A DNA stretch of 64,000 bases from an uncultured Clostridium sp. (GCA_947646915.1 CANSII010000003.1:5010-69009); one strand, 5' to 3'. Counted from the stretch's first letter, positions 138 through 41,066 are shown. Numbers and translations: made by a program. Notes: a model not told the origin generated them from the letters alone.

Positions 138-299
138 TTACATTATTCCTTTGTTATGTTTTTTACATTTTATCATAACAATTATAAATATAAAAGATGT
201 TTCATATTTAAATTTTGTTTTTTGCACAAATATGTTACAATTCACAGCCTTAAAAATAGCAATATAAAGTTACTAGTCAGCCATTAAAAGAATAATAAT

Positions 300-447
300 A
301 AAGCAAATAATATTAATCTGAAAAAATGAGTTTGACAGTGGTTCGCTATTCACTTTAAGCAGTTATAGTGTGTATCAATATTTAGGATTTTTAGTATCTT
401 AAACGCCTTGGAGAATGGAATTTTTGAAGATTCATATTATTTGCTTT
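300..447 (+). repeat. R140 dispersed element, full copy
   Basis: Conserved blocks AAAAAATGAGTTTGACAGTG / TTATTCACTTTAA / TTATAGTGTGT / AGTATCTTAAACGCCTTGGAGAA, closed by inverted arms AAAGCAAATAATATTAATCTGAAAAA ... TTTTTGAAGATTCATATTATTTGCTTT. Matches copies at 15141, 24330, 30764, 40879, 59871 and 61043. Confidence 0.8.
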
Positions 448-520
448 TAATAAATTATTTAATTAAAGTTGTGAATAGTAACACAAATATATTATTTATA
501 AAAAACCGAAACTTAAAATT

Positions 521-3172
521 TTATAAATCTGCAATAGAATTAATACAAATTTTACTATCCAATTTAGGTCTATTCATCAATTTTTGCAACTCTATCACAG
601 GAATAGGCAAAAGAGAAATACCAATAGTAATAATCCATTGAACACCATTTAAAGGAACAACCTCAAAAACATTTGCAAAAACTGGAATTATAACAACAAT
701 AGTTTGAATAAACAAACCTAAAACAAAACTACCTACCAAAAACTTATTTTCAAAAAACCCTGTTTCAAAAATTGACTTTTCACTTTTAATATTAAAACTA
801 TGAATTAATTCAAGAAAACCAATTGATAAAAACGCCATAGTTCTACCAACTTCTAAGCCATAATATTTATTACCCATACTAAAAGCAACTAATGTCAGCA
901 TTCCAATCATAACACCCTCAACAATAATCTTATTCCATAATCCATCTGCAAAAATACCTTTTTTACTATTTACAGGCTTTCTTTTCATAATATTTTTTTC
1001 AGGATTTTCTAATCCCAAAGCAATTGCTGGTAATGAATCTGTAACCAAATTAATCCATAACAACTGAATTGCAAGTAAAGGTGATTTTAATCCTAATAAT
1101 AATCCCATAAAAATAGTTACAATTTCACCAATATTTGTTGCAATTAGAAAATGAATAGCCTTTTTTATATTATCAAAAATATTTCTTCCTTGTTTTACCG
1201 CTTCCACTATTGTTACAAAATTATCATCTGTAAGAATAATATCAGACGCATTTTTAGCAACATCTGTACCATTTTTTCCCATAGCAATTCCAATATCTGC
1301 ATTTTTTAAAGCAGGGCTATCATTTACTCCATCACCTGTCATAGCTACAACTGCACCATTTTTTTGCCAAGCTTTTACTATTCTAACTTTATGTTCAGGT
1401 GTAACCCTTGCAAATACTGAATAATTTTTAATACTTTTTTCTAATTGACTTTGATTTATTTTATCTAATTCTTGACCTGTTATCGCCTTATCTTTTTCAG
1501 TTAATATTCCTAAATCTTTAGCAATAGCTTTTGCTGTTTCTAAGTGATCTCCTGTTATCATAACAGTTTTTATTCCCGCATTTTTACATGTAGCAACAGC
1601 ATCTTTTACTCCTTCTCTAGGAGGATCTATCATTCCTATAAGTCCTACAAATGTTAGATTATTTTCAATTGTTGATGATTCAATTTTAGATGGTATGGTG
1701 TCAACATCTTTATACGCTACTGCAATTACTCTTAAAGCATTTTGTGCCATTTGACTATTATCATTTTGTATTTTAGATTTTTGTAAAACCTGAACTTTTA
1801 CATTGTAATCATTCTCAAATTCATTAATTTCTAAAGTTTCTTTAGTACATCTCTCCATTAAAACATCTGGTGCACCTTTTGTTATTATTCGATATTTATT
1901 TCCTATTTTATGTATTGTTGACATCATTTTTCTATTAGAATCAAAAGGAATTTCATTTACTCTAGGCATATTTTCTTCTAACTGACTTTTTATCTTTCCA
2001 ATATTAATACCTTCTTCTACAATTGCTCTTTCTGTTGGCTCACCTGAAACATTTTTTATATCATTTTCCACAGTTATTTCACAATCTGTGCATAAAGTTG
2101 CTAATTGTATTGCAAAATTCTTATTCTTTGCTCTTACATCTACTACTTTCATTTTATTTTGAGTTAAAGTCCCTGTTTTATCTGAACATATTACACTGCT
2201 ACTTCCTAATGTTTCTACAGCTGGCAATTTTCTAATTATGCTATTTTTCTTTGCCATTTTTGTAACACCTATAGATAACATTATTGTTACAATTGCTGGT
2301 AATCCCTCTGGAATTGCTGCAACTGCAAGTCCTACTGATGTCATAAACATTTCTATTGGTTCTATATGTTTTATTAATCCAATTACAAATATGATTATAC
2401 AAATTGCTAAACATGCTATACCTAATATTTTTCCAACTTCTCCTAGCTTCTTTTGTAGTGGTGTTTCAGGTGCTTCATCTTCAATTATCATATTTGCAAT
2501 TTGTCCAACTTTTGTATTCATTCCTGTCTCAGTAACTACAGCTTTTCCATGTCCATTTACTGCAATACTTGCCATAAATGCAAGATTTTTCATATCCCCT
2601 AATGGTATATCTTTTTTACATACAATATTTGCATCTTTTAAAACAGGTTCAGTCTCCCCTGTTAAAGATGATTCTTCTATCTTTAAATTATGACTTTCTA
2701 TAATTCTACAATCTGCTGGAACATAATTTCCTGCCTCTAATTCTATAATATCACCTTTAACTAAATCTTCTGCATGTATTTCAATTTTTTTGCCATTTCT
2801 AATAACTTTTGCAATTTGAGGTGTCATCTGCTTTAATGCCTCTATTGATTTTTCTGCTTTTGCTTCTTGTATAACTCCCATTAGAGCATTAAAAATTACT
2901 ATTCCTATTATTATAATAGAATCTACATAGTCATTTTCTCCTTGCATTCTTGATACTAAAGCTGATATTATTGATGCTAATATTAATATTATTATCATGA
3001 AGTCATTAAATTGTTTTACAAATTTTATTACTAAACTTTCTTTCTTTTTTTCTTCTATTTTATTCCTTCCATATTTTTCTTGCCTTATCTTTACTTCTTC
3101 TTCTGATAATCCTATTTTCTCATTTGTGCTTAAATTTCTAATTACTTCTTCTTTTTTTAGTGTCTGCCACAT
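521..3172 (-). CDS. calcium-translocating P-type ATPase (P2 type)
   Basis: Phosphorylation motif CSDKTGTLTQN, MITGDH, hinge TGDGVNDSPALK, multi-TM C-terminal half. The ORF-track start at 3181 is GTG; the ATG at 3172 follows AGGAG by about 7 nt. Confidence 0.9.
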   Translation of the reverse strand: MWQTLKKEEVIRNLSTNEKIGLSEEEVKIRQEKYGRNKIEEKKKESLVIKFVKQFNDFMIIILILASIISALVSRMQGENDYVDSIIIIGIVIFNALMGVIQEAKAEKSIEALKQMTPQIAKVIRNGKKIEIHAEDLVKGDIIELEAGNYVPADCRIIESHNLKIEESSLTGETEPVLKDANIVCKKDIPLGDMKNLAFMASIAVNGHGKAVVTETGMNTKVGQIANMIIEDEAPETPLQKKLGEVGKILGIACLAICIIIFVIGLIKHIEPIEMFMTSVGLAVAAIPEGLPAIVTIMLSIGVTKMAKKNSIIRKLPAVETLGSSSVICSDKTGTLTQNKMKVVDVRAKNKNFAIQLATLCTDCEITVENDIKNVSGEPTERAIVEEGINIGKIKSQLEENMPRVNEIPFDSNRKMMSTIHKIGNKYRIITKGAPDVLMERCTKETLEINEFENDYNVKVQVLQKSKIQNDNSQMAQNALRVIAVAYKDVDTIPSKIESSTIENNLTFVGLIGMIDPPREGVKDAVATCKNAGIKTVMITGDHLETAKAIAKDLGILTEKDKAITGQELDKINQSQLEKSIKNYSVFARVTPEHKVRIVKAWQKNGAVVAMTGDGVNDSPALKNADIGIAMGKNGTDVAKNASDIILTDDNFVTIVEAVKQGRNIFDNIKKAIHFLIATNIGEIVTIFMGLLLGLKSPLLAIQLLWINLVTDSLPAIALGLENPEKNIMKRKPVNSKKGIFADGLWNKIIVEGVMIGMLTLVAFSMGNKYYGLEVGRTMAFLSIGFLELIHSFNIKSEKSIFETGFFENKFLVGSFVLGLFIQTIVVIIPVFANVFEVVPLNGVQWIITIGISLLPIPVIELQKLMNRPKLDSKICINSIADL

Positions 3173-3317
3173 AATTTTCACTCCTTTGTTTTTCTTTTTT
3201 TAATGTATATGTGGCTTGTACTTTTTTATTACTATAAATATTTTCAAGTCAAAATTGCTTACACTTTATACAAATCCAATGCAAATTTATATGTTTTTTT
3301 AAATAATTTGCATTTTG

Positions 3318-6297: not shown

Positions 6298-9200
6298 TTA
6301 TTTTTTCAACTTCATAGATAGTAACTTAGAAATACCACTCTCTTCCATAGTAACGCCATAAACAGAATCAGCAACCTCCATAGTACCCTTTCTATGAGTA
6401 ATAACCAAGAATTGGGTAGATTCAGTAAACTTCTTCAAATAATCAGCATATCTAAACACATTAACATCATCTAAAGCAGCCTCAATCTCATCAAGAACGC
6501 AGAAAGGAGCAGGATTAATCTTCAAAATTGCAAACAGTAAAGCGATTGCAGTAAAAGCCTTTTCTCCTCCAGACAATAGAAGCATACTTTGTAACTTCTT
6601 TCCAGGAGGTTGAACAGTAATTTCAATACCACACTCTAAAATATTTTCTTCATCTTCTAGTTTTAATTCAGCTTTACCACCACCAAACAATTCAGCAAAA
6701 ACCTCTCCGAAGTTTTTATTTATAACTTTAAACTTTTCTCTAAATTGTTCTTTCATAATTTGAGTCATATCTGAAATTACTTTTCTTAATTGACTCATTG
6801 TATTTTCTAAGTCTAATCTTTGTTCACTCATAAAATCATATCTATCTTTTAGACTTTTATATTCTTCTATTGAATCAACATTTACACTACCAAGTTCTCT
6901 AATGTCAGTTCTTAATGTATTTACTCTTCTTTGAGTTACAGCAACATTTTCTGGTTTTTGATAATCACCTACATTATTTGGAGTAAGTTCATATTCTTCC
7001 CACATTTTGCTTATAACTTCATTAATATCCTCTTCTATTTTTGACTTTCTAACTTCTAATTTTACAAGTTGACCTTTTAAGTCTTCAATAATTTTAAATT
7101 TAGCAGTTATTTCATCCTCTTGTTTTGAAAGTTCTTCACTTTTTTCTTGTCTTTGTTTTTTCATTTTCTCAATTTTTGAACTACTACTTTTTACATTTTC
7201 TTGTATTTGTTCAATTTTTTGAAGAGTCTCATTTATTGACTTCTCTAAGTTTTCATTATCTACTTTTATTTGTTCAATTTGACTTTTCTTATTTTCTATA
7301 CTTGCATTTGCATTTGCCAATTCCTGATTAATTCTTTCTTGAATTTCTTCTATCGAGCTTTCACTTTCGTCAAATGAAGATACAGAAATTTTTAAATTAG
7401 TTATATCAAAATTCAAATCATCAATATATTTTTGATCATCTTTATTTAATTCTGCAAATTCAGAAATAATCTTTGAAAACTCTTCATTTTTCTTTGTTAT
7501 TTCTTCAATTTGCTTTTGTATTTCCTCTTTATTTTGATTAGCCTCTCTTTTCTGATTTTCCAAGTTAGCTTGTTCTTCTTTTAATCTAGCTAATCTATTT
7601 TGAAGTTTTTCAATATTTTCATCTATTGATAAAACTTTCTGTTTTTGTGTAGCATATGTTATATCAATTTCTTGCAATTCTTTTTCTAAATTAGCTGATA
7701 ATTCAAAAGTTCCTTCAATAGAATCTTCATATTTTTCTTTATCCTCTTGTAATTTTTGAATCTTATCTTTTAGTTCTTTTAGTTCTTTTTCTAGTTTTTC
7801 AATTTCTTTACCTCTACCTAAAATATTAACAGTCTTTTTAGCAACAGATCCACCTGTTATGCTACCAGATGAATTAATCAAATCGCCTTCTTGTGTTACT
7901 ATTCTAAAGCTATAATTATTCTGTTTTGCAACTTTTATTGCAGTATCCATATTATCAACAATAACTGTTCTTCCAAGCAAATTTAAAATAATTTGTTCGT
8001 ATTTATTATTATATTTAACTAAATCTGATGCGATTCCTATTACACCTTTTTCATTTCCATTTATTTTATCTAATTTCTTACCTTTAACAGATGAAAGTGG
8101 CAAAAATGATGCTCTTCCTAAATTATTTTTTCTTAAATGTTCTACTAATCTTTTAGCATCTTGTTCTGTTTCTGTCACTATATTTTGAAGGCTTGCACCT
8201 AAGCACATCTCAATTGCAGTCTGTAAATCATTTGGAACATCAATAATATTTGCTAATACTCCATGCATTCCATTTCCAAGTTCTTTGATATTTTCGCAAT
8301 CTTTAAGTAAAGATTTTACACTTTTTATATAACCTTCTTTTTCTTTTTCTGTCTCTATTAAAAATTTTAGTCTTGATTCTTTTATTCTCATTTCACTTGA
8401 CAATGAATTTATATTTTCTTCAAATGATTTTATATTTTGACTTGCTTCCTGTTTCTGTGTTGTTAATTCTTCTAATGTTTTATTTGTTTTATTTCTTTTG
8501 TTTTCTATTTCATTAAAATCCTTTGCAATATCTTCTTTTGTAAGTCTTGTATTATCTAACTCTGAAATAGTACTTTGCATTTCTTGTTTTATCTGTAATT
8601 GTCTTTTTTCACAGTTTTCATAGTTTATATTTTGTGTGTTAATATCTGATTGTAACTCATATTTTTTATCAGTGTTTTGCTCAACTTGCTGTTTATAACC
8701 TTCAATTTCAATCTCTTTTGTTGATAATTTTTGTGTTATTTTATCAAGTTCTTCTTGTTTTTCTTTTAATTCTTTCTCAAACTTTTCTTTGTTTTGTTTT
8801 AAACTATCTCTTTTAGCCTCTTTTTGTTCAATTTCTTCTTTTAACTCATTTACTCTTGCATTTTGATCTTCTATTTCTTTTGAAAATCTTTCACTATTTT
8901 CATTATTATTTGCAATTCTTGTTTTAGCAACATTTATATCTGAATTTAATTGCTCAACTTGCTTTTGACTTTCAAAACCTACATTTGTCATATTTTCAAT
9001 GTTTTCAGTTATTTCATCTATACTCTCTTTTAGTTCTTCTTTTAATATTTTAACTTTTTCTAGTTTTCCTTCTTCATCATTACATTGAGATTGCATTATA
9101 TCTATATCTTTTACTAAATTTTCTAAATCTTGTTTATATTTTTCTATGTTATATACAAATAATCCTATTTCTATACTTTTTAGTTCTTCTCTTAAGTTTA

Positions 9201-9846
9201 GATATTTTTTTGCTTTATCCGCTTGCATTTGTAAAGGTTCAAGATTTCCTTCTATTTCTGTTAAAATATCATTTATTCTAAGAAGATTTAATTTTGTATG
9301 TTCTAACTTTTTCTCTGACTCTTGTTTTCTTGTCCTATATTTTACTATACCTGCTGCTTCTTCAAAAATGTTTCTTCTGTCTTCAGATTTGTTACTTAAA
9401 ATTTCATCAATTTTACCTTGTCCTATTATTGAATACCCATCTTTTCCAATTCCTGTATCCATAAACAATTCAAGAACATCTTTTAATCTACATGGTACTT
9501 TATTTATGAAATACCCTGTTTCTCCACTTCTGTAAATTTTTCTTGTGACTGTAACTTCTGTATATTCTATTGGCAATGCACCATCACTATTATCAAATAC
9601 TAAAGAGGCTTCTGCATATCCTAATGATTTTCTATTTTGCGTTCCTGCAAATATGACATCTAAGGATTTTGCTCCTCTTAGTGATTTCATGCTTTGCTCT
9701 CCTAATACCCATCTTATACTATCTGATATGTTGCTTTTTCCTGATCCATTTGGTCCTATTACTGTTGTTATTCCTGGCATTAGCTCTAATATTGTTTTAT
9801 CTGCAAAGGATTTGAATCCTTGTAATTCTAATCTTTTTAAATACAT
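6298..9846 (-). CDS. smc: chromosome partition protein Smc
   Basis: N-terminal Walker A GPNGSGKSN, long coiled coils, hinge, C-terminal LSGGEK signature and Walker B VLDEIEAALD. Start moved to MYLKRLEL (9846), the usual Smc N-terminus. Confidence 0.95.
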   Translation of the reverse strand: MYLKRLELQGFKSFADKTILELMPGITTVIGPNGSGKSNISDSIRWVLGEQSMKSLRGAKSLDVIFAGTQNRKSLGYAEASLVFDNSDGALPIEYTEVTVTRKIYRSGETGYFINKVPCRLKDVLELFMDTGIGKDGYSIIGQGKIDEILSNKSEDRRNIFEEAAGIVKYRTRKQESEKKLEHTKLNLLRINDILTEIEGNLEPLQMQADKAKKYLNLREELKSIEIGLFVYNIEKYKQDLENLVKDIDIMQSQCNDEEGKLEKVKILKEELKESIDEITENIENMTNVGFESQKQVEQLNSDINVAKTRIANNNENSERFSKEIEDQNARVNELKEEIEQKEAKRDSLKQNKEKFEKELKEKQEELDKITQKLSTKEIEIEGYKQQVEQNTDKKYELQSDINTQNINYENCEKRQLQIKQEMQSTISELDNTRLTKEDIAKDFNEIENKRNKTNKTLEELTTQKQEASQNIKSFEENINSLSSEMRIKESRLKFLIETEKEKEGYIKSVKSLLKDCENIKELGNGMHGVLANIIDVPNDLQTAIEMCLGASLQNIVTETEQDAKRLVEHLRKNNLGRASFLPLSSVKGKKLDKINGNEKGVIGIASDLVKYNNKYEQIILNLLGRTVIVDNMDTAIKVAKQNNYSFRIVTQEGDLINSSGSITGGSVAKKTVNILGRGKEIEKLEKELKELKDKIQKLQEDKEKYEDSIEGTFELSANLEKELQEIDITYATQKQKVLSIDENIEKLQNRLARLKEEQANLENQKREANQNKEEIQKQIEEITKKNEEFSKIISEFAELNKDDQKYIDDLNFDITNLKISVSSFDESESSIEEIQERINQELANANASIENKKSQIEQIKVDNENLEKSINETLQKIEQIQENVKSSSSKIEKMKKQRQEKSEELSKQEDEITAKFKIIEDLKGQLVKLEVRKSKIEEDINEVISKMWEEYELTPNNVGDYQKPENVAVTQRRVNTLRTDIRELGSVNVDSIEEYKSLKDRYDFMSEQRLDLENTMSQLRKVISDMTQIMKEQFREKFKVINKNFGEVFAELFGGGKAELKLEDEENILECGIEITVQPPGKKLQSMLLLSGGEKAFTAIALLFAILKINPAPFCVLDEIEAALDDVNVFRYADYLKKFTESTQFLVITHRKGTMEVADSVYGVTMEESGISKLLSMKLKK

Positions 9847-9867
9847 TTCTCTCACCATTCACTTTTT

Positions 9868-9900
9868 TGTCCATGTCCAAAGGGGACGTTTTCTTTTGGA
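9868..9900 (-). promoter_or_regulatory. GGACA-box motif in the smc 5' leader
   Basis: Read in smc sense: AAACGTCCCCTTTGGACATGGACA, ending 21 nt before the smc ATG. Same box before hydC, hydA and the 27638 gene. Confidence 0.6.
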
Positions 9901-9983
9901 TATATTTTCATTCTATAATATCTTTTAAAAAAAAGCAAGAATATTTTCTAACCTTTTTATTATACAAACGTGTATTTTGAGCC

Positions 9984-10077: not shown

Positions 10078-10659
10078 ATGGATAATTTAATAGAAATTAG
10101 ATGGCATGGTAGAGGTGGACAAGGAGCAAAAACAGCATCACTATTATTGGCAGATGCAGCATTTAATACTGGAAAATATATACAAGGATTTCCAGAATAT
10201 GGACCAGAAAGAATGGGAGCTCCAATAACAGCATATAACAGAATAAGTGACAAACCAATAACAGTACATAGTAACATATATGAACCTGACTATGTAGTAG
10301 TTGTTGATGAAACACTATTAGAATCAGTACCAGTTACAGAAGGATTAAAAGAAACAGGAGCAATAGTAATAAACACAACAAAATCACCTGAATACTTAAA
10401 AAATGTATTAAAAGACTATAAAGGAAAAATATATACAATTGATGCAAGAAAAATATCAATAGAAGCATTAGGAAAATACTTTCCTAATACACCAATGCTT
10501 GCAGCAATAGTAAAAGTAAGTGGAATTATGACAGACGAAGCATTTTTAGAAGATATGCAAGGATCATTTAAACATAAATTTGCAAAAAAACCAGAAGTAA
10601 TAGAAGGAAACATGAAAGCAATAAAATTGGCATTAAACAATGTTACAAAAATTCAATAG
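10078..10659 (+). CDS. porG: 2-oxoacid (pyruvate):ferredoxin oxidoreductase, gamma subunit
   Basis: 193 aa, GRGGQGAKTAS motif, first gene of a gamma-delta-alpha-beta operon, RBS AAGGAGG. Confidence 0.85.
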   Translation: MDNLIEIRWHGRGGQGAKTASLLLADAAFNTGKYIQGFPEYGPERMGAPITAYNRISDKPITVHSNIYEPDYVVVVDETLLESVPVTEGLKETGAIVINTTKSPEYLKNVLKDYKGKIYTIDARKISIEALGKYFPNTPMLAAIVKVSGIMTDEAFLEDMQGSFKHKFAKKPEVIEGNMKAIKLALNNVTKIQ

Positions 10660-10671
10660 GAGGGAAAAATC

Positions 10672-10977
10672 ATGACTAATATAAATAAAAATACACCTAT
10701 GGAAGATTTAAGCATAGGTGGAAACATTTATACAGCAGGAAATGCAAGAGAATTTAAAACAGGAGACTGGAGAAGTGTAAGACCAGTATGGATAGAAGAA
10801 AAATGTAAACAATGTGGTTTATGTTTTCCAGTTTGTCCTGATAATAGCATTCCTGTATGTAAAGATTCTTTAAAAAGAACTGATTACAATTATGACTATT
10901 GCAAAGGTTGTGGAGTATGTGCAAAAACATGTCCTTTTGCTGCAATAGAAATGAAGGAAGAAGGTGTAGATAAATAA
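10672..10977 (+). CDS. porD: 2-oxoacid:ferredoxin oxidoreductase, delta subunit (2x[4Fe-4S])
   Basis: Two ferredoxin motifs, CKQCGLCFPVCP and CKGCGVCAKTCP. Confidence 0.85.
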   Translation: MTNINKNTPMEDLSIGGNIYTAGNAREFKTGDWRSVRPVWIEEKCKQCGLCFPVCPDNSIPVCKDSLKRTDYNYDYCKGCGVCAKTCPFAAIEMKEEGVDK

Positions 10978-12167
10978 TGAGTATAAGAGAAAGATTAAGT
11001 GGTAATGAAGCAGTAGCTACAGCAATGAAGCAAATTAATCCTGATGTTGTTGCAGCATTTCCTATTACACCATCAACAGAAATTCCCCAGTATTTTTCAA
11101 CATTTGTTGCAAATGGTACAGTAGACACAGAATTTGTTGCAGTTGAAAGTGAACATAGCGCAATGAGTGCTTGTATTGGTGCACAGGCTGCAGGTTCAAG
11201 GGCTATGACAGCTACTTCTGCAAATGGTTTATCTTTAATGTGGGAAATGATTTATATAGCTTCAAGTTTAAGACTTCCAATTGTTTTAAATCTTGTTAAT
11301 AGAGCTGTATCAGGTCCATTAAATATACATTGTGACCATTCAGATGCAATGGGTGTTAGAGATGCTGGTTGGATAATGTTATTTTCAGAAAATAATCAAG
11401 AAGCTTATGATAATAATTTAATGGCTCATAAAATTGCCGAAAATAAAAATGTTCAACTTCCTGTAATGATTTGTCAAGATGGTTTTATAACTTCACATTC
11501 AATAGAAAATATTGAATTAGAAGAAGATTCAGAAGTTAAAAAGTTTGTTGGAGAGTATCATCCTGAACATTATTTATTAAACAAAAAAGAACCTATTGCA
11601 GTAGGTCCTCTAGATTTACAAGCATATTTATTTGAACATAAAGCTCAGCAAGGTGAAGCTATGAAGGCTGCAAAACAAGTTATTTTAGATATTTCTAAGG
11701 ATTTCGAAAAATGGACTGGTAGACATTATGGATTATTTGAAGAATATAAATTAGCGGATAGCGAAATTGCAATTGTTTGTATGAATTCAACTGCTGGAAC
11801 TGCAAAAGCTGTAATAGATAAATTAAGAGATAATGGTGTAAAGGCTGGTTTATTAAAAATTAGAGTTTATAGGCCTTTCCCTAGTAATGAAGTTGCTAAA
11901 GCTCTAAGTCATCTAAAAGCAATTGCTGTTTTAGATAGGTCAGATTCTTTAAATGCAATGGGTGGTGCTTTATTTGAAGATGTAACATCTAGTATGTATG
12001 TGGCTAAAAATCAAGTTCCTATGGTTAATTATATTTATGGTATTGGTGGTAGAGATACTACTGAGAATGATATTGAATCAGTTTATGCTGATTTAATTGA
12101 AATCGTTTCAAGTGGAAAAATAGAAAATCCATATAGATATTTAGGTTTAAGAAAGGAGGCAAAATAG
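10977..12167 (+). CDS. porA: 2-oxoacid:ferredoxin oxidoreductase, alpha subunit
   Basis: 396 aa, overlapping TAATG junction with the delta gene; order and size typical of porA/vorA. Confidence 0.85.
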   Translation: MSIRERLSGNEAVATAMKQINPDVVAAFPITPSTEIPQYFSTFVANGTVDTEFVAVESEHSAMSACIGAQAAGSRAMTATSANGLSLMWEMIYIASSLRLPIVLNLVNRAVSGPLNIHCDHSDAMGVRDAGWIMLFSENNQEAYDNNLMAHKIAENKNVQLPVMICQDGFITSHSIENIELEEDSEVKKFVGEYHPEHYLLNKKEPIAVGPLDLQAYLFEHKAQQGEAMKAAKQVILDISKDFEKWTGRHYGLFEEYKLADSEIAIVCMNSTAGTAKAVIDKLRDNGVKAGLLKIRVYRPFPSNEVAKALSHLKAIAVLDRSDSLNAMGGALFEDVTSSMYVAKNQVPMVNYIYGIGGRDTTENDIESVYADLIEIVSSGKIENPYRYLGLRKEAK

Positions 12168-12168
12168 T

Positions 12169-13119
12169 ATGGCATATAATTTGAAAGAAGTTGTAGCTAA
12201 TAAGCCTTCAAGATTTACAGAAGGTCATAGAATGTGTGCAGGATGTGGAGCACCAGTTGTAGCAAGACATATATTAAGAGCATTAAAAGAGGAAGACCAT
12301 GCAGTAATTGCAGGAGCAACAGGATGTATGGAAGTATCAACATTTATATATCCATATACAGCTTGGACAGATTCATTTGTACACACAGCCTTTGAATGTG
12401 CTGGTGCAACATTATCAGGTGCAGAAGCTGCATATAAATCACTTAAAAGACAAGGAAAACTACCACAAGATGAACATACAAAATTTATTGCTTTTGGTGG
12501 AGATGGTGGAACATATGATATAGGAATACAATCATTATCAGGCGCTATGGAAAGAGGACATGATATGTTGTATGTATGTTATGATAATGGTGCATATATG
12601 AATACAGGGATTCAACGTTCATCTGCTACACCAAAATTTGCAGATACAACAACATCACCTGCTGGAAAAGTAATTCCTGGTAAAATGCAATCAAGAAAAG
12701 ACTTAACTAAAATAATGGTTGAACATCATTTGCCTTATGTTGCACAAACTGCAGCTGTGAATAATATGAAAGATTTATATGAAAAAGCTGAAAAAGCTAT
12801 TTATACAGAAGGTCCAACATTTTTAAATGTTATGGCTCCTTGTCCAAGAGGATGGGGCTATTCAACTGAAGATTTAATGCAAATAAATAAATTAGCTGTA
12901 GAAACATGCTATTGGCCTTTATATGAAGTTGTTGATGGTGTTTATCATATTACTTATAAACCAATCAAGAAACTTCCTATAGAAGAATTCTTAAGACCAC
13001 AAAAGAGATTTAAACATATGTTTAATTCAGGTAATGAATGGATGATTGAAGAATTCCAAAAAGAAGTTGATAAAAGATGGCAAGAACTTTTAGATTTAGA
13101 ATCACTTAATAATAAATAA
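12169..13119 (+). CDS. porB: 2-oxoacid:ferredoxin oxidoreductase, beta subunit (TPP-binding)
   Basis: N-terminal CAGCG cluster ligands and TPP motif FGGDGGTYDIG...YDNGAYMNTG. Confidence 0.85.
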   Translation: MAYNLKEVVANKPSRFTEGHRMCAGCGAPVVARHILRALKEEDHAVIAGATGCMEVSTFIYPYTAWTDSFVHTAFECAGATLSGAEAAYKSLKRQGKLPQDEHTKFIAFGGDGGTYDIGIQSLSGAMERGHDMLYVCYDNGAYMNTGIQRSSATPKFADTTTSPAGKVIPGKMQSRKDLTKIMVEHHLPYVAQTAAVNNMKDLYEKAEKAIYTEGPTFLNVMAPCPRGWGYSTEDLMQINKLAVETCYWPLYEVVDGVYHITYKPIKKLPIEEFLRPQKRFKHMFNSGNEWMIEEFQKEVDKRWQELLDLESLNNK

Positions 13120-13131
13120 GAGAAAAAATTT

Positions 13132-13161
13132 AGGAAGTAAGTTTAGACTAACTTACTTCCT
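13132..13161. terminator. bidirectional terminator between porB and hydA
   Basis: AGGAAGTAAGTT (13132-13143) pairs with AACTTACTTCCT (13150-13161); A/T runs on both sides; convergent genes. Confidence 0.7.
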
Positions 13162-13168
13162 TATTAAA

Positions 13169-14923
13169 TTAATCAATATCATATTTTAATTTAGCACTAT
13201 ATGTAGTATGCAAATACTTATGAGCAACATGGCTTCCTGGTTTTTCTAAAAACTCATCATACAAATTTTTTATTACAGGATTTTCATGAGATTTTCTAAA
13301 AACACTTTTTTCATCAATTGAATATAAGCTCTCGCTTCTTAGTTTTCTAACATCTACAGTAGATCTTACTTTAGAACTTTTAATAGGTTGCCCTCCGCCC
13401 ATAACACAACCTCCAGGACAAGCCATTATTTCTACAAAATGGTAAGGAGATTTATTCTCTTTAATCTGTTCCATGATTTTCTTAGCATTAGCTAATCCAC
13501 TTGCAACTGCAATTTTTACATCTTTTCCAGCTACATTTATGGTTGCTTCTTTTATCCCCTTTTCTCCTCTCACTTCTTTATATTCTATCTTATCCATACT
13601 TTTATTTTCTAAAGTATCAACAGCTGTTCTTATTGCAGCCTCCATTACTCCGCCAGTAGTTCCAAAAATAGCACCTGCACCACTTGCTTCTCCCATAGGA
13701 CTATCGAAATCACTATCTTCTAATCCAACAAAATCAATATTAGCCTGTTTAATCATTCTAGCTAGCTCTCTTGTAGTAATAACATAATCAACATCTCTAA
13801 CGCCATCTACTTCCATTTCATCTCTTCTACATTCATATTTTTTTGCAATACATGGCATAACAGATACTGTACAAATTTTATTTCTATCAATTCCATATTT
13901 ATTTGCAAAATATGATTTAATAACTGCACCAAACATTTGATGTGGTGATTTACAGCTTGATAAATGATCTAAAAGCTCTTCATAATTTTTTTCTGCAAAT
14001 CTCACCCAACCAGGACTACAAGATGTTATCATTGGTAAAACTCCTTTTGTTTGAATTCTTTCAATAAACTCATTTGCCTCTTCCATAATTGTAAGGTCTG
14101 CAGCTGTATTTGTATCAAATATTTTATCAAATCCCATTCTTTTTAGTGCTGTTATCATTTTGCCTTTTGCATTAGTTCCAATTGGCATACCGAATTCCTC
14201 TCCAATTGCAACTCTAACTGCAGGTGCTGTTTGAACTACAACAAATGTATCAGGATCTTTTAATTTTGTCCAAACATCATTTATTGATTCTTTTTCATGT
14301 AATGCTCCTGTTGGACAACTTTCAATACATTGTCCACAAAATGTGCAATCAACATCATTTAAGCTATTATTATAAGTTGTAGAAATACAAGATTCAAAAC
14401 CTCTTTCAACACAATCTATTGCACCTATTCCTTGTACATTTTTACATGTTGCAACACATCTTCTACACAATATACATTTATTAAAATCTCTTACAATTGC
14501 AGGAGATTTATCATCTATTTTATGTTCTGTCATCTCACCTGCAAATTCTATGTCTAATATATTAAATTTTTCAGCTAATGCTTGTAATTCGCAATTTCCT
14601 GAACGTGTACATGTTAAACAATCTTTCGAATGGTTTGATATTATTAAATCTAAAATTACATGTCTTGCTTCTAAAACACTTGCTGTCTGTGTGTGTACTA
14701 CCATTCCTTCTTCAACTGTTTGTATGCATGATGTTGCAAATCCTTTTCTTCCTTCTATTTCTACTATGCACATTCTACAGTCTCCAACTTCATTTATTTC
14801 TTTTAAATAACATAGTGTTGGTATATCTATTCCAGCTTTCTTGGCTGCTTCTAATATTGTAGTTCCTTTTGGTACTGCTATTTTTTGGTTATCTATTGTT
14901 ATATTTACTAAATTTTCTTCCAT
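13169..14923 (-). CDS. hydA: [FeFe] hydrogenase catalytic subunit (HydA of HydABC type)
   Basis: N-terminal 2Fe-2S and 4Fe-4S domains; H-cluster motifs TSCSPGW, MPCIAKKYE, MACPGGCVMGGG. Start moved to MEENLVNITI (14923), 8 nt after AAGGAG. Confidence 0.9.
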   Translation of the reverse strand: MEENLVNITIDNQKIAVPKGTTILEAAKKAGIDIPTLCYLKEINEVGDCRMCIVEIEGRKGFATSCIQTVEEGMVVHTQTASVLEARHVILDLIISNHSKDCLTCTRSGNCELQALAEKFNILDIEFAGEMTEHKIDDKSPAIVRDFNKCILCRRCVATCKNVQGIGAIDCVERGFESCISTTYNNSLNDVDCTFCGQCIESCPTGALHEKESINDVWTKLKDPDTFVVVQTAPAVRVAIGEEFGMPIGTNAKGKMITALKRMGFDKIFDTNTAADLTIMEEANEFIERIQTKGVLPMITSCSPGWVRFAEKNYEELLDHLSSCKSPHQMFGAVIKSYFANKYGIDRNKICTVSVMPCIAKKYECRRDEMEVDGVRDVDYVITTRELARMIKQANIDFVGLEDSDFDSPMGEASGAGAIFGTTGGVMEAAIRTAVDTLENKSMDKIEYKEVRGEKGIKEATINVAGKDVKIAVASGLANAKKIMEQIKENKSPYHFVEIMACPGGCVMGGGQPIKSSKVRSTVDVRKLRSESLYSIDEKSVFRKSHENPVIKNLYDEFLEKPGSHVAHKYLHTTYSAKLKYDID

Positions 14924-15140: not shown

Positions 15141-15203
15141 TTAAGCCAAATAATATTAACTTGAAAAAATGAGTTCGACTATGAGTCTTTTTATTTGGCT
15201 TAT
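15141..15203 (+). repeat. R140 element, internally deleted copy
   Basis: TTAAGCCAAATAATATTAACTTGAAAAAATGAGTTCGAC... closed by TTATTTGGCTTA; only the left conserved block is retained. Confidence 0.6.
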
Positions 15204-20013: not shown

Positions 20014-20044
20014 CTTTCCTCCTACAGTAGATGTCACTATCATA

Positions 20045-20100
20045 ACATCTAATTTCTAACCTCTGACATCTAACTTCCTACTTCTGACCTCTAGTCTCTA
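20045..20100 (-). repeat. eight in-phase heptad repeats (YAGRRGT) immediately upstream of spoVB
   Basis: In spoVB sense: TAGAGAC TAGAGGT CAGAAGT AGGAAGT TAGATGT CAGAGGT TAGAAAT TAGATGT. Confidence 0.8.
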
Positions 20101-23505: not shown

Positions 23506-23662
23506 TTATATAGACCTCCTTCTTAAAATTGATTTGAATTAATTTTATTACTTAACCAATCTAAAGAGAAGGCAAATATTTCAAAATAAATTCATTTATG
23601 TTTCTTTTCTGAAACTAATATAAATATATCACATTTAAATATAAAATGCAAGAAAATTTTAA

Positions 23663-23728
23663 TTTAAGTTTCAGTTTTTTATTTTTTATAAGTTCAATTA
23701 TAGAAAAAAGATATATAACTTTTTTCTA
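23663..23728 (+). repeat. backbone repeat B, empty copy (no R140 core)
   Basis: TTTAAGTTTCAGTTTTTTATTTTTTATAAGTTCAATTATAGAAAAAAGATATATAACTTTTTTCTA; about 85% identical to 24297-24350. Confidence 0.65.
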
Positions 23729-23766
23729 AATAATACAGTTATACAAAAAAACAAAGCTTAAAAATT

Positions 23767-24210
23767 TTAAATATCTTTGTCTAATATTATAGTAACTGGT
23801 CCATCATTAATCAATTCAACTTTCATTTCAGCGCCAAAAATACCTGTTTGTACATTATCAACTTCATCTTTACATTTATTTATAACATATTCATATAATT
23901 CTTTTGCAAAATCAGGTCTTGCAGCTTCTGTAAATGATGGTCTATTTCCACTAGAACAATCTGCATATAGAGTAAATTGTGAAACTAAAAGCAATGCTCC
24001 TTTTATATCTTTTAATGATAAATTCATTTTACCTTTTTCATCCTCAAAAACACGTAAATTAATTAACTTTTTTATTAAATAATCAGCTATTTGTTTATTA
24101 TCATTATGTGTTATACCAATTAAAACTAGAAATCCATTATCTATTTTTCCAACAATTTCATTATTAACCTCAACATTGGCTTTTTTTACTCTTTGAATTA
24201 CAAATTTCAT
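23767..24210 (-). CDS. dtd: D-aminoacyl-tRNA deacylase
   Basis: MKFVIQRVKKANVEV..., SQFTLYADC, GNRPSF; start moved to the ATG at 24210, after AGGGGAG. Confidence 0.93.
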   Translation of the reverse strand: MKFVIQRVKKANVEVNNEIVGKIDNGFLVLIGITHNDNKQIADYLIKKLINLRVFEDEKGKMNLSLKDIKGALLLVSQFTLYADCSSGNRPSFTEAARPDFAKELYEYVINKCKDEVDNVQTGIFGAEMKVELINDGPVTIILDKDI

Positions 24211-24296
24211 ATTATAGTCTCCCCTTCTCATATATATTTAAAATAATGCTCCTTTATTTATAACATACTTGAATTGTATGTGCAATATCAAAAAGG

Positions 24297-24510
24297 TTTA
24301 AGTTTCGGTTTTTATTTTTCAAACTTTATTATAGAAAAAAGATATATATTATAAAGCGAGTTTGACAGTGAGGCGTTATTCATCTTAAGTTATTATAGTG
24401 TGTCTCTTAGGTTTGAATGTTCAATATCTTAATCGCCTTGGAAAACAGAGCTGAATAATATATATCTTTTTTCTATATAATATATTTTTTGCATAATGCC
24501 GAAACTTAAA
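24297..24510 (+). repeat. backbone repeat B carrying an R140 core (filled copy)
   Basis: Outer arms TTTAAGTTTCGG / CCGAAACTTAAA. Inner 22-nt arms TATAGAAAAAAGATATATATTA (24330-24351) / TAATATATATCTTTTTTCTATA (24456-24477) enclose the core GAGTTTGACAGTG...CGCCTTGGAAAAC. Confidence 0.75.
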
Positions 24511-24558
24511 CAAAAAGGATTTAAGACCAAAATAGATCCTAAATCCTTTTTAATAATA

Positions 24559-30763: not shown

Positions 30764-31200
30764 TTAAGTCATAATAATATTAATTTAAAAAAATGAGTTT
30801 GACCTGTGTTTCTATTCTCTTTAACCCATTATAGTGTGTCTCTTTTCTTTGAATTTTCAGTGTCTTTAACGCCTTGGAAAACGGAATTTTTGAAAATTCA
30901 TATTATTATGACTTAATAATATGAATTTAAAAAAATGAGTTTGACCTGTGTTTCTATTCACTTTAACCTGTTATAGTGTGTCTCTTTTCTTTGAATTCTC
31001 AGTGTCTTTAACGCCTTGGAAAACGGAATTTTTGAAAATTCATATTATTATGACTTAATAATATGAATTTAAAAAAATGAGTTTGACCTGTGTTTCTATT
31101 CACTTTAACCTGTTATAGTGTGTCTCTTTTCTTTGAATTCTCAGTGTCTTTAACGCCTTGGAAAACGGAATTTTTGAAAATTCATATTATTATGACTTAA
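30764..31200 (+). repeat. three tandem R140 elements (142-bp period)
   Basis: Units 30772-30908, 30914-31050 and 31056-31192, separated by TGACT. The whole array is bracketed by inverted TTAAGTCA / TGACTTAA. Units 2 and 3 are identical by eye; unit 1 differs at a few positions. Confidence 0.9.
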
Positions 31201-31229
31201 TAAAAATATATCTTCAAAAAAAATTATTT

Positions 31230-40783: not shown

Positions 40784-40878
40784 TTGTATCCCTCCTTATT
40801 TTTTATATACTATATCATATATAGTCTAAAAAGTCCACCAAATAAGTGAAACTTTTGCTATATCTTGTTAATTAATCC

Positions 40879-40963
40879 TTTATAATGTGCTTCTAAAATA
40901 TAAATTCTCAGTATCTTAAACACCTTGGAGAACGCAGTTTTTGAAAATTTATATTATTATGGC
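40879..40963 (+). repeat. R140 element, right half only
   Basis: TTTATAATGTG...CTCAGTATCTTAAACACCTTGGAGAACGCAGTTTTTGAAAATTTATATTATTATGGC. Confidence 0.6.
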
Positions 40964-41066
40964 TAATTTATTTTCACTTTGTATTGCAAAATTCTAAATT
41001 TCATATTGGTGCCTAGAAAACAAAAAAACTGCCTTAAAGGAAATAATCCTTTAGGCAGTTATTAAT

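Follow-up and report, generated by a model that had tools for sequence, protein, structure and literature searches.

We analysed a 64,000-nucleotide stretch of DNA from an uncultured Clostridium sp. (GCA_947646915.1, CANSII010000003.1:5010-69009), here called the window, and the hairpin-forming repeat family R140 that lies between its genes. The window has a GC content of about 26%. Its GC skew is negative as far as ~60 kb, and the minus strand carries most genes. R140 copies are flanked by unrelated housekeeping genes, including those for a P-type ATPase, HydA, a NuoF-like protein, topoisomerase III, SMC, Mfd and LeuRS, as well as dtd, rpiB and others. The original prediction had listed nine copies, some of them incomplete; the core was on the plus strand in each, and eight lay between minus-strand genes. 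Searches with blastn and nhmmer recovered exactly these nine, all on the plus strand. Full copies were located at 300-449, 24326-24478 and, in a row, 30765-30915, 30914-31058 and 31056-31200; remnants were located at 15141-15202, 40872-40965 (right half), 59854-59982 and 61044-61100. No credible minus-strand copy was detected in the window, even with nhmmer at E<=10, with filters off and a whole-element or core-only profile. Eight of the nine indeed lay between minus-strand genes, and the copy at 61044 lay between one minus-strand and one plus-strand gene. An additional, collapsed copy was found at 23663-23762. The pattern TTATAGTGTGT-N18-32-CGCCTTGGA occurred five times in the window, against 0.00 expected from shuffled sequences. 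The motif TTATAGTGTGT reads TTATAATGTG in some copies, which corrects the earlier description.

The hairpin unit at 300-447 (plus strand) has 28-nt arms, 89% complementary, around a 92-nt conserved asymmetric core. Across the family, the common part was an asymmetric core of ~95 nt, closed by the 4-bp helix GTTY/RAAC and short A-run/T-run inner arms. The conserved core blocks were GAGTTYGAC, TTATT, TTATAGTGTGT, TGAAT and CTTAAACGCCTTGGARAAC. Outside the core, at least four arm designs were observed, each common to several genomes. Designs A, B and C read TTAAGCATAATAATATTAATCTGAAAAAAT, TATAGAAAAAAGATATATATTWCAAAG and AATGTTTAATATATAATATTTAAAATT, respectively. Design D consists of AGTAGG, a variable segment of ~14-17 nt and then TATATATTATAATAAAAAAC, and its stems have up to 43 perfect pairs. 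In the window, the arms were 28-34 nt long and 85-93% complementary, with sequence differing between copies. A k-mer survey found no outer motif universal to all subfamilies. R140 elements were 150-350 bp long, had no coding capacity, and none lay within a called open reading frame (ORF). A conserved small ORF was rejected after the copies were read, as they held just non-conserved mini-ORFs of 10-14 codons that were not common to the subfamilies.

The original prediction had described these arms as outermost and had argued that their pattern is not expected for terminal inverted repeats (TIRs) recognised by a transposase. For the copies that could be delimited, neither point held. The stems were internal and the true termini lay further out; these copies had conserved TIRs (TTTAAGTTTCGG...CCGAAACTTAAA) and 8-bp target-site duplications (TSDs). 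A complete B-type element of 214 bp was located at 24297-24510 (plus strand), with the upstream gene's terminator T-tract on one side and the dtd promoter on the other. Its TIRs, named T1, were TTTAAGTTTCGG (24297-24308) and CCGAAACTTAAA (24499-24510), with arms at 24330-24357 and 24450-24477 and the core at 24357-24449. It was flanked by a perfect 8-bp TSD, CAAAAAGG (24289-24296 and 24511-24518). The collapsed B-type copy at 23663-23762 (plus strand) had no core but still had the T1 ends and the outer half of each B arm. It also had a perfect 8-bp TSD, AATTTTAA (23655-23662 and 23763-23770).

The hairpin at 300-447 was part of a 311-bp composite element at 207-517 (plus strand) with nested inverted-repeat layers. 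The outer layer was T1 (207-223, TTTAAATTTTGTTTTTT; 501-517, the reverse complement of TTTAAGTTTCGGTTTTT), and the second layer, T2, was at ~233-246 (GTTACAATTCACAG) and 467-481. Inside them lay A-type arms (300-327 and 420-447) and the core (327-420). The octamers flanking the composite, GTTTCATA (199-206) and ATTTTATA (518-525), were alike at 6 of 8 positions. The T2 motif GTTACAATTCACAG was also found at 59826-59840, in the outer part of C-type copies, and in the flanks of three contigs from other genomes (L003, L018 and L029). T2 may be the terminus of another chassis of the MITE kind (miniature inverted-repeat transposable element).

The other copies in the window were of types A, B and C, all on the plus strand. 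An A-type remnant at 15141-15202 had an internal deletion that left the left arm, ~20 nt from the start of the core and the right arm's end (TTAAGCCAAATAA / TTATTTGGCTTA). A tandem A-type triple was located at 30765-31203 (period 142, 3.0 copies, 98% identical), with overlapping arms in common. Assemblies of the same strain break at these tandem copies, and one contig ends there. An A-type right half at 40872-40965, upstream of rpiB, contained the right half of the core and the right arm. The copy at 59876 was longer than first described. It is a C-type copy spanning 59819-60168, with arms at 59859-59886 and 60127-60154 and the core at 59886-59982. Directly after the core's ...GAAC, an unrelated hairpin repeat of ~145 nt, R2 (59983-60126), was nested in it; the right end of this C-type copy is probably truncated. 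An old B-type copy at 61044-61100 retained the left arm and the first third of the core.

Copies in other genomes were collected with the exact two-block pattern TTATAGTGTGT...CGCCTTGGA, so the invariance of both blocks was partly forced. The pattern scan of gut metagenomes gave 44 real R140 loci, and nine further loci were chance matches. By pattern scan, 37 loci came from human and mouse gut, in at least 14 species-level metagenome-assembled genomes (MAGs) labelled as uncultured Clostridia, Clostridium or Eubacteriales. After removal of duplicates, there were 75 distinct copies; with copies from relatives fetched later, the independent insertion loci numbered 54. The pairing statistics below rest on 67 distinct copies from the window and public contigs. 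The GAGTTYGAC, TTATT, TGAAT and CTTAAA blocks were conserved independently of the search pattern, and copies found later without it showed TTATAATGTGT variants. The density in the window had been called very high. This was borne out, as only L080 among the other loci had a second copy within ~8 kb, indicating that the window genome is unusually rich in copies. A blastn search of one copy against plasmids and phages gave no match. A literature search with motif strings gave chance primer matches only, and nothing specific on a Clostridia MITE with compensatory hairpins was found there.

Syntenic contigs from relatives at 86-95% protein identity were compared with the window. Four clean or near-clean pairs of filled and empty sites were obtained, and further pairs had 72-80% DNA identity in the flanks. 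At the junction between a 125-aa gene and dtd, the window was filled (24297-24510) and L099 (93% dtd identity) had no insertion at precisely this position. There, the dtd promoter directly followed the terminator T-tract, and the duplicated 8-mer (CCTTTTTG in gene sense) occurred once. The same junction in MGBC107383 (L100) had a 55-bp mini-element with the same T1 ends in the same place, and L103 had half an element. At the junction between the HD-domain gene and the topoisomerase III gene, the 350-bp C-type copy of the window (59819-60168) was inserted in ...AATGTTCT|CAACAATT..., and L096 was uninterrupted and near-identical (GTTCT|CAAC). At the HSP33 to DHH junction, L094 carried a 215-bp B element (10550-10764), and the window and L096 were empty; the flanks of the L094 element matched as TAAATAAA after a 1-nt boundary shift. 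Between the genes for a PLP enzyme and a FAD enzyme, the window had the triple copy, L099 had a 67-nt remnant, and L103 had nothing. Between the LeuRS and HD genes, an old B copy was differently deleted in the window (61044-61100), L096 and L093. These comparisons show gain and loss of the elements at orthologous sites.

T1-bounded elements of 214-220 bp were present in the window, L002, L006 and L094. In all, similar elements of this size lay in four loci of three genomes other than the window's, and at three of these loci the 8-bp flanks matched or nearly so. The flanking 8-mers agreed at 7 of 8 positions in L002 and were ambiguous in L006. A 64-bp derivative in L097 had a perfect 8-bp duplication, TTATCATA. 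The T1 ends, TTTAAGTTTCGG(TTTTT) / CCGAAACTTAAA, bound the B type as well as the 207-517 composite and were seen in the window, L002, L006, L094, L097 and L100. The B subfamily is the best defined, with a length of 214-220 bp, conserved TIRs and 8-bp duplications of an AT-rich target. With presence/absence polymorphism and no coding capacity in addition, the B type has those defining features of a MITE that could be assessed here.

Decayed copies were found in the window (15141, 23663, 40872 and 61044) and among relatives (L099, L096, L097 and L103). The core-less versions in L097 and at 23663 kept arm pieces and look like deletions of the palindrome centre; the elements decay by such deletions. 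At one orthologous locus (L012, L017, L030, L047 and L060), the coding flanks were 95-98% identical and the element was ~70% identical by eye, with mirrored arm differences. This suggests that the element there was replaced by a paralogue, through gene conversion or re-insertion. The filled and empty sites, the decay by deletion, the unrelated flanking genes and the nested hairpin repeats indicated that R140 is mobile DNA and not a set of RNA genes. That copies are lost or truncated at orthologous sites speaks against a functional RNA gene in every copy.

The closing stems had been predicted to differ between loci while remaining complementary, and this was confirmed. In the tested stems, 95.4% of cells paired, versus 71% after shuffling and 42-63% when partners were slid. 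Both-sided changes were seen in 296 cells versus 90 expected. Within subfamilies, 250 cells had changed identically in both arms and 146 in one arm; if the arms had changed independently, ~22 mirrored cells would be expected. Arm indels were mirrored too (for example GCAAAT, GCCAAAT and GTCATAAT). Covarying closing stems would suit a structured RNA. However, the eleven outer pairs had 4 G:U and 53 unpaired in 737 cells, so G:U intermediates were nearly absent. The commonest change was AU to UA, which cannot pass via a wobble intermediate. The arm mismatches comprised 30 core-strand wobbles versus 43 opposite-strand wobbles and 119 transversions, indicating no strand preference. The scarce G:U pairs, the mismatches without strand bias and the compensated indels argue for DNA-level copying from arm to arm rather than selection on an RNA stem.

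The inner helix behaved differently from the outer stems. It had 15 G:U and 4 unpaired in 265 cells, which is RNA-like. Pair 57:154 was UA in 32 copies, CG in 26, UG in 6 and unpaired in 2; pair 56:155 was UA in 53, CG in 7 and UG in 6; pair 54:157 was GC in 47, UA in 13, GU in 3, UG in 1 and unpaired in 2. An RNA structure was not supported for the stems originally described: the outer arms were DNA-like, and only the inner GTTY/RAAC helix wobbled as an RNA would. Inside the core, no covariation was found beyond 3 pairs, and an automatic consensus fold of the whole alignment gave the outer stem and a few invariant pairs only. A predicted GUGU/ACGC helix tolerated an A-to-G change, and folding z-scores went down to -4.6 and -6.7. 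With RNA parameters, the core strand folded better than its complement in 50 of 67 copies, by 3.3 kcal/mol on average over all copies; both strands folded equally well with DNA parameters. The asymmetry under RNA parameters may reflect the G+T-rich composition of the core strand.

The orientation bias noticed in the window generalised to other genomes. With one representative for each of the 54 independent loci, the core was antisense to the genes at 32 loci and sense at 3 loci between co-directional genes (p = 4e-7). Eleven loci lay between divergent genes and 2 between convergent genes. The gene lying 5' of the core strand typically had its start codon 15-130 nt away. In one operon, the element was located between a stop codon and the next ribosome-binding site. 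The core strand was the C-rich strand in most loci, so gene direction and replication direction were confounded. In 8-kb loci where the neighbouring gene and the locus majority disagreed, 7 copies followed the neighbour, 4 the majority and 3 neither. The bias is robust, and given the near-symmetric TIRs we favour post-insertion selection as its source. Hairpin stability in single-stranded DNA was rejected as a cause, because no asymmetry was seen with DNA parameters. In the window, the region at ~60000-61200 combines a change of GC skew sign with a gene strand switch, from the HD-domain gene (minus) to leuS (plus). This switch could be related to replication; no dnaA was seen.

Signals for transcription were also considered. 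No sigma-70-like promoter was conserved at a fixed position on either strand, and at most 28 of 67 copies had a weak 8/12 match. TTGACA and TATAGT in the core were 25-26 nt apart. A scan predicted no intrinsic terminator inside the elements. A Spo0A box (TTCGACA) and a DnaA box in the core were dropped as candidates, since the perfect form occurred in a minority of copies. Rfam gave 0 matches at the gathering score for the window, nothing relevant at E<=1 for four loci, and nothing relevant at E<=10 for the element alone. A tRNA/tmRNA search found none. Near copies in other genomes, Rfam matched a 6S RNA (95.9 bits; L004 6208-6392, plus strand) and a glmS ribozyme (94.5 bits; L020 6309-6463, minus strand). 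Lying a few hundred nucleotides from the copies, they are probably coincidental neighbours.

We consider R140 the central hairpin of non-autonomous mobile elements, MITE-like foldback elements of ~150-350 bp in the AT-rich intergenic DNA of low-GC, spore-forming, uncultured gut Clostridia, and put the probability of this reading at about 0.6. R140 is best explained as a previously undescribed MITE-like foldback family of these low-GC uncultured gut Clostridia that belongs to no named family. The B-type elements would be moved in trans by a hypothetical DDE-type transposase making 8-bp staggered cuts in AT-rich intergenic DNA. Arm complementarity would come mainly from copying at the DNA level, either by hairpin- or cruciform-templated repair or by quasipalindrome template switching, and selection for an RNA helix is the less likely cause. 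Quasipalindrome template switching is a mechanism described in E. coli studies. The core of ~95-110 nt and the GTTY/RAAC helix may be kept because spread needs them in cis, or because they form an orientation-dependent signal. The antisense bias may reflect the loss of oppositely oriented copies; insertion coupled to one strand is less likely.

Several observations weigh against this explanation. The centre is the most conserved part and is common to four arm/terminus designs, whereas a typical MITE needs only its ends, though this conservation is partly search-forced. Insertion by a transposase that recognises near-symmetric TIRs should be random in orientation, yet 32 of 35 loci between co-directional genes were antisense. 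Wobble in the inner helix was one-stranded, with 16 G:T or T:G on the core strand versus 3 A:C or C:A. TIRs with TSDs were seen in the B type and in the composite around 300-447 alone; the A (30765), C and D types may end differently, and the clean C-type insertion at 59819-60168 had no visible target duplication. Finally, across the window and 103 loci (~1 Mb), no T1 pair enclosed a transposase ORF, and no partner transposase was found among the window ORFs scanned for annotation (30 of 57). The sole transposase-like Pfam match was PF04754 (Transposase_31, YhgA/Rpn-like nuclease), a 208-aa product encoded at 50336-50962 on the minus strand. This gene had the same position in the relatives L093-L097, lacked T1 ends and had no evident link to R140.

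A less probable explanation gives the core a role of its own. The ~110-nt core with its GTTY/RAAC helix would be a strand-specific module, either a small structured RNA or a folded single-stranded DNA site bound by a protein, that is carried in several transposon chassis and tolerated or used only antisense to genes. The long arms would serve to expose it at a hairpin or cruciform tip, and copying from arm to arm in the DNA would keep them perfect. If so, R140 would be a mobile, orientation-dependent regulatory or recombination device and more than junk MITE DNA.

It is unlikely that the core alone is the mobile unit. In that case, ~110 nt with the A-run/T-run inner arms would insert in the (TA)n-rich centres of existing palindromes, including palindromic MITEs; the arms would be target DNA and the layers would result from nesting. 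The same core does occur in four unrelated arm/terminus designs, every arm type is rich in TA repeats beside the inner arms, and the copy at 300-447 lies within two further inverted-repeat layers, T2 and T1. MGBC107383 has a 55-bp hairpin of T1 only where the window has T1, B arms and core. R2 gives a parallel: in L093 it interrupts, exactly at the centre, a palindrome whose window counterpart (52597-52638) is intact, and it also sits at the core edge at 59983-60126. However, the distance from T1 to the B arm was constant in all B copies of several genomes, which indicates that B moves as one unit. The core-less L097 and 23663 copies keep arm pieces, as expected for deletion of the centre. Solo D-type outer palindromes were absent from all loci, and blastn and nhmmer searches of the window with whole copies as queries, arms included, gave no arm-only copy except the collapsed one at 23697. 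The nesting lends some weight to the suggested insertion into loops of existing palindromes; the core-less arms, however, resemble deletion derivatives, and no solo D palindromes were found.

We think it still more doubtful that R140 is a single-strand, hairpin-dependent element or site, of the IS200/IS605-derived PATE, REPIN-like or attC-like kind, in which single-stranded DNA folds and inserts strand-specifically in step with replication. The strong strand bias, which follows GC skew at most loci, the conservation of structure over sequence and the one-stranded G:T wobble of the inner helix all fit this explanation, as does the clean C-type insertion without duplication 3' of GTTCT. On the other hand, B-type copies have classical TIRs and 8-bp duplications, the GTTCT target is absent at other copies, and both strands fold equally with DNA parameters. 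The core is on the C-rich strand, that is, the leading-strand template and not the exposed lagging template; IS608-type elements reportedly use the lagging template exposed as single-stranded DNA, as Ton-Hoang and colleagues are said to have found in 2010. The loci with conflicting signals favoured the neighbouring gene by 7 to 4. The Y1/HUH transposase, for which a search had been proposed in the original prediction, was not in the annotated part of the window, and the window ORFs that were scanned and the Pfam lists for fetched loci (~0.9 Mb) showed neither Y1/HUH nor RAYT nor integron integrase.

Least probable is a structured non-coding RNA family, consisting of small RNA genes or cis-acting modules transcribed from the core strand, antisense to the neighbours and closed by a long P1 stem: the covarying closing stems, the inner helix with U:G and almost no C:A, the A-to-G tolerance of the GUGU/ACGC helix, the z-scores and the better folding of the core strand speak for it, and the G:U-poor outer stems without strand bias, the lack of covariation in the core beyond three pairs, the compositional account of the folding asymmetry, the missing Rfam family, the lack of a conserved promoter or terminator, the loss or truncation of copies at orthologous sites and the unrelated flanking genes speak against it.

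Among known systems, Correia/NEMIS elements of Neisseria and bcr1 of the Bacillus cereus group resemble R140 in being 100-300 bp, non-coding, intergenic and multi-copy, with a long hairpin and insertion polymorphism; the TIRs and TSDs of the R140 B type are a further likeness. Correia elements have a 26-bp conserved TIR, whereas R140 has a 12-17 bp terminal repeat and an 8-bp duplication. Correia elements make a TA duplication. Unlike Correia and bcr1, R140 has arms that vary with compensation around a conserved centre, is ~91% antisense to genes, and shares no sequence similarity with them. R140 works like the long-hairpin kind of bacterial MITE that includes ERIC (PMC3184786). The centre of the Correia element carries an IHF site and promoters (PMC3184786), and the R140 centre may also carry a signal. 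Compared with typical MITEs, the subfamilies of R140 have the centre and not the ends in common, the internal arms evolve in concert, and the orientation is ~10:1.

Membership of the REPIN, PATE and integron attC families was rejected, as the tested features failed. REPIN/BIME elements resemble R140 in that they form hairpins with arms and a central motif, are intergenic, mosaic or nested, and occur in clusters and tandems. In REPINs, the arms (REP) are conserved and the loop varies; they have no 8-bp duplication and accompany a RAYT (Y1) gene. In R140, by contrast, the loop or core is conserved, the arms vary, and RAYT was not seen in the ORFs and Pfam lists scanned. PATEs derived from IS200/IS605 are likewise small, non-coding, structure-dependent and strand-biased. 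They have unlike left and right subterminal hairpins and insert 3' of a fixed tetra- or pentanucleotide without duplication. The R140 B type differs from them by its symmetric TIRs and 8-bp duplications of varied AT-rich sequence. Integron attC sites (for example VCRs) are also imperfect palindromes of ~60-140 nt, with structure over sequence, one chromosomal orientation and an expected action on one strand. Their outer R''/R' boxes are conserved and the centre varies, and they follow promoterless cassettes in an array beside intI. R140 differs from attC in its conserved centre, the reversed order of the GTT/AAC boxes, and copies 6-15 kb apart among housekeeping operons; no integrase was seen in the scanned ORFs.

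R140 adds a repeat family to a clade of gut Clostridia that is poorly known and represented by MAGs alone. It explains assembly breaks, and its insertion polymorphism gives markers for strain typing. Two questions become testable with it. One is how long inverted repeats stay complementary while they drift, by DNA-level correction or by selection. The other is why an element with TIRs and TSDs should favour one orientation to the genes over the other by ~10:1. If the core is functional, R140 would be a case in which several transposon chassis spread a module for regulation or recombination.

Other repeats were noticed near R140. The R2 hairpin family has the arms AGAACAAA.ACG.AG.CAT / ATGC.TC.TTTTGTTCT, and occurs in the window at 59983-60126 and in L093 at ~9760-9940. 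A perfect 20-bp palindrome, TAAAATTGTTGATATATAAA/TTTATATATCAACAATTTTA, is located at 52597-52638 of the window, between mfd and the SpoU methylase gene. At this junction, the palindrome is split by R2 in L093, and L081 has a D-type element. A third repeat, R3 (ATTTATATATCAACATTTTAATTAAATA...AACCATTATACAGTAACAA), is intergenic in L096 (~3170-3250) and L094 (~7440-7520), and its start resembles the window palindrome at 52619-52638. Short direct repeats rich in CTCTGAC were found at 20040-20100 of the window, where a 620-nt intergenic region upstream of rplM begins, and a similar motif was found in L093 at ~1530-1570.

Gene content also differed between the window and its relatives. In L103, MmeI-like restriction-modification genes lie downstream of dtd (11363-13631); the window lacks them. 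Between mfd and the topoisomerase III gene, the window carries a 394-aa ORF without a Pfam match on the minus strand (56126-57310), which is present in L093 and not in L096.

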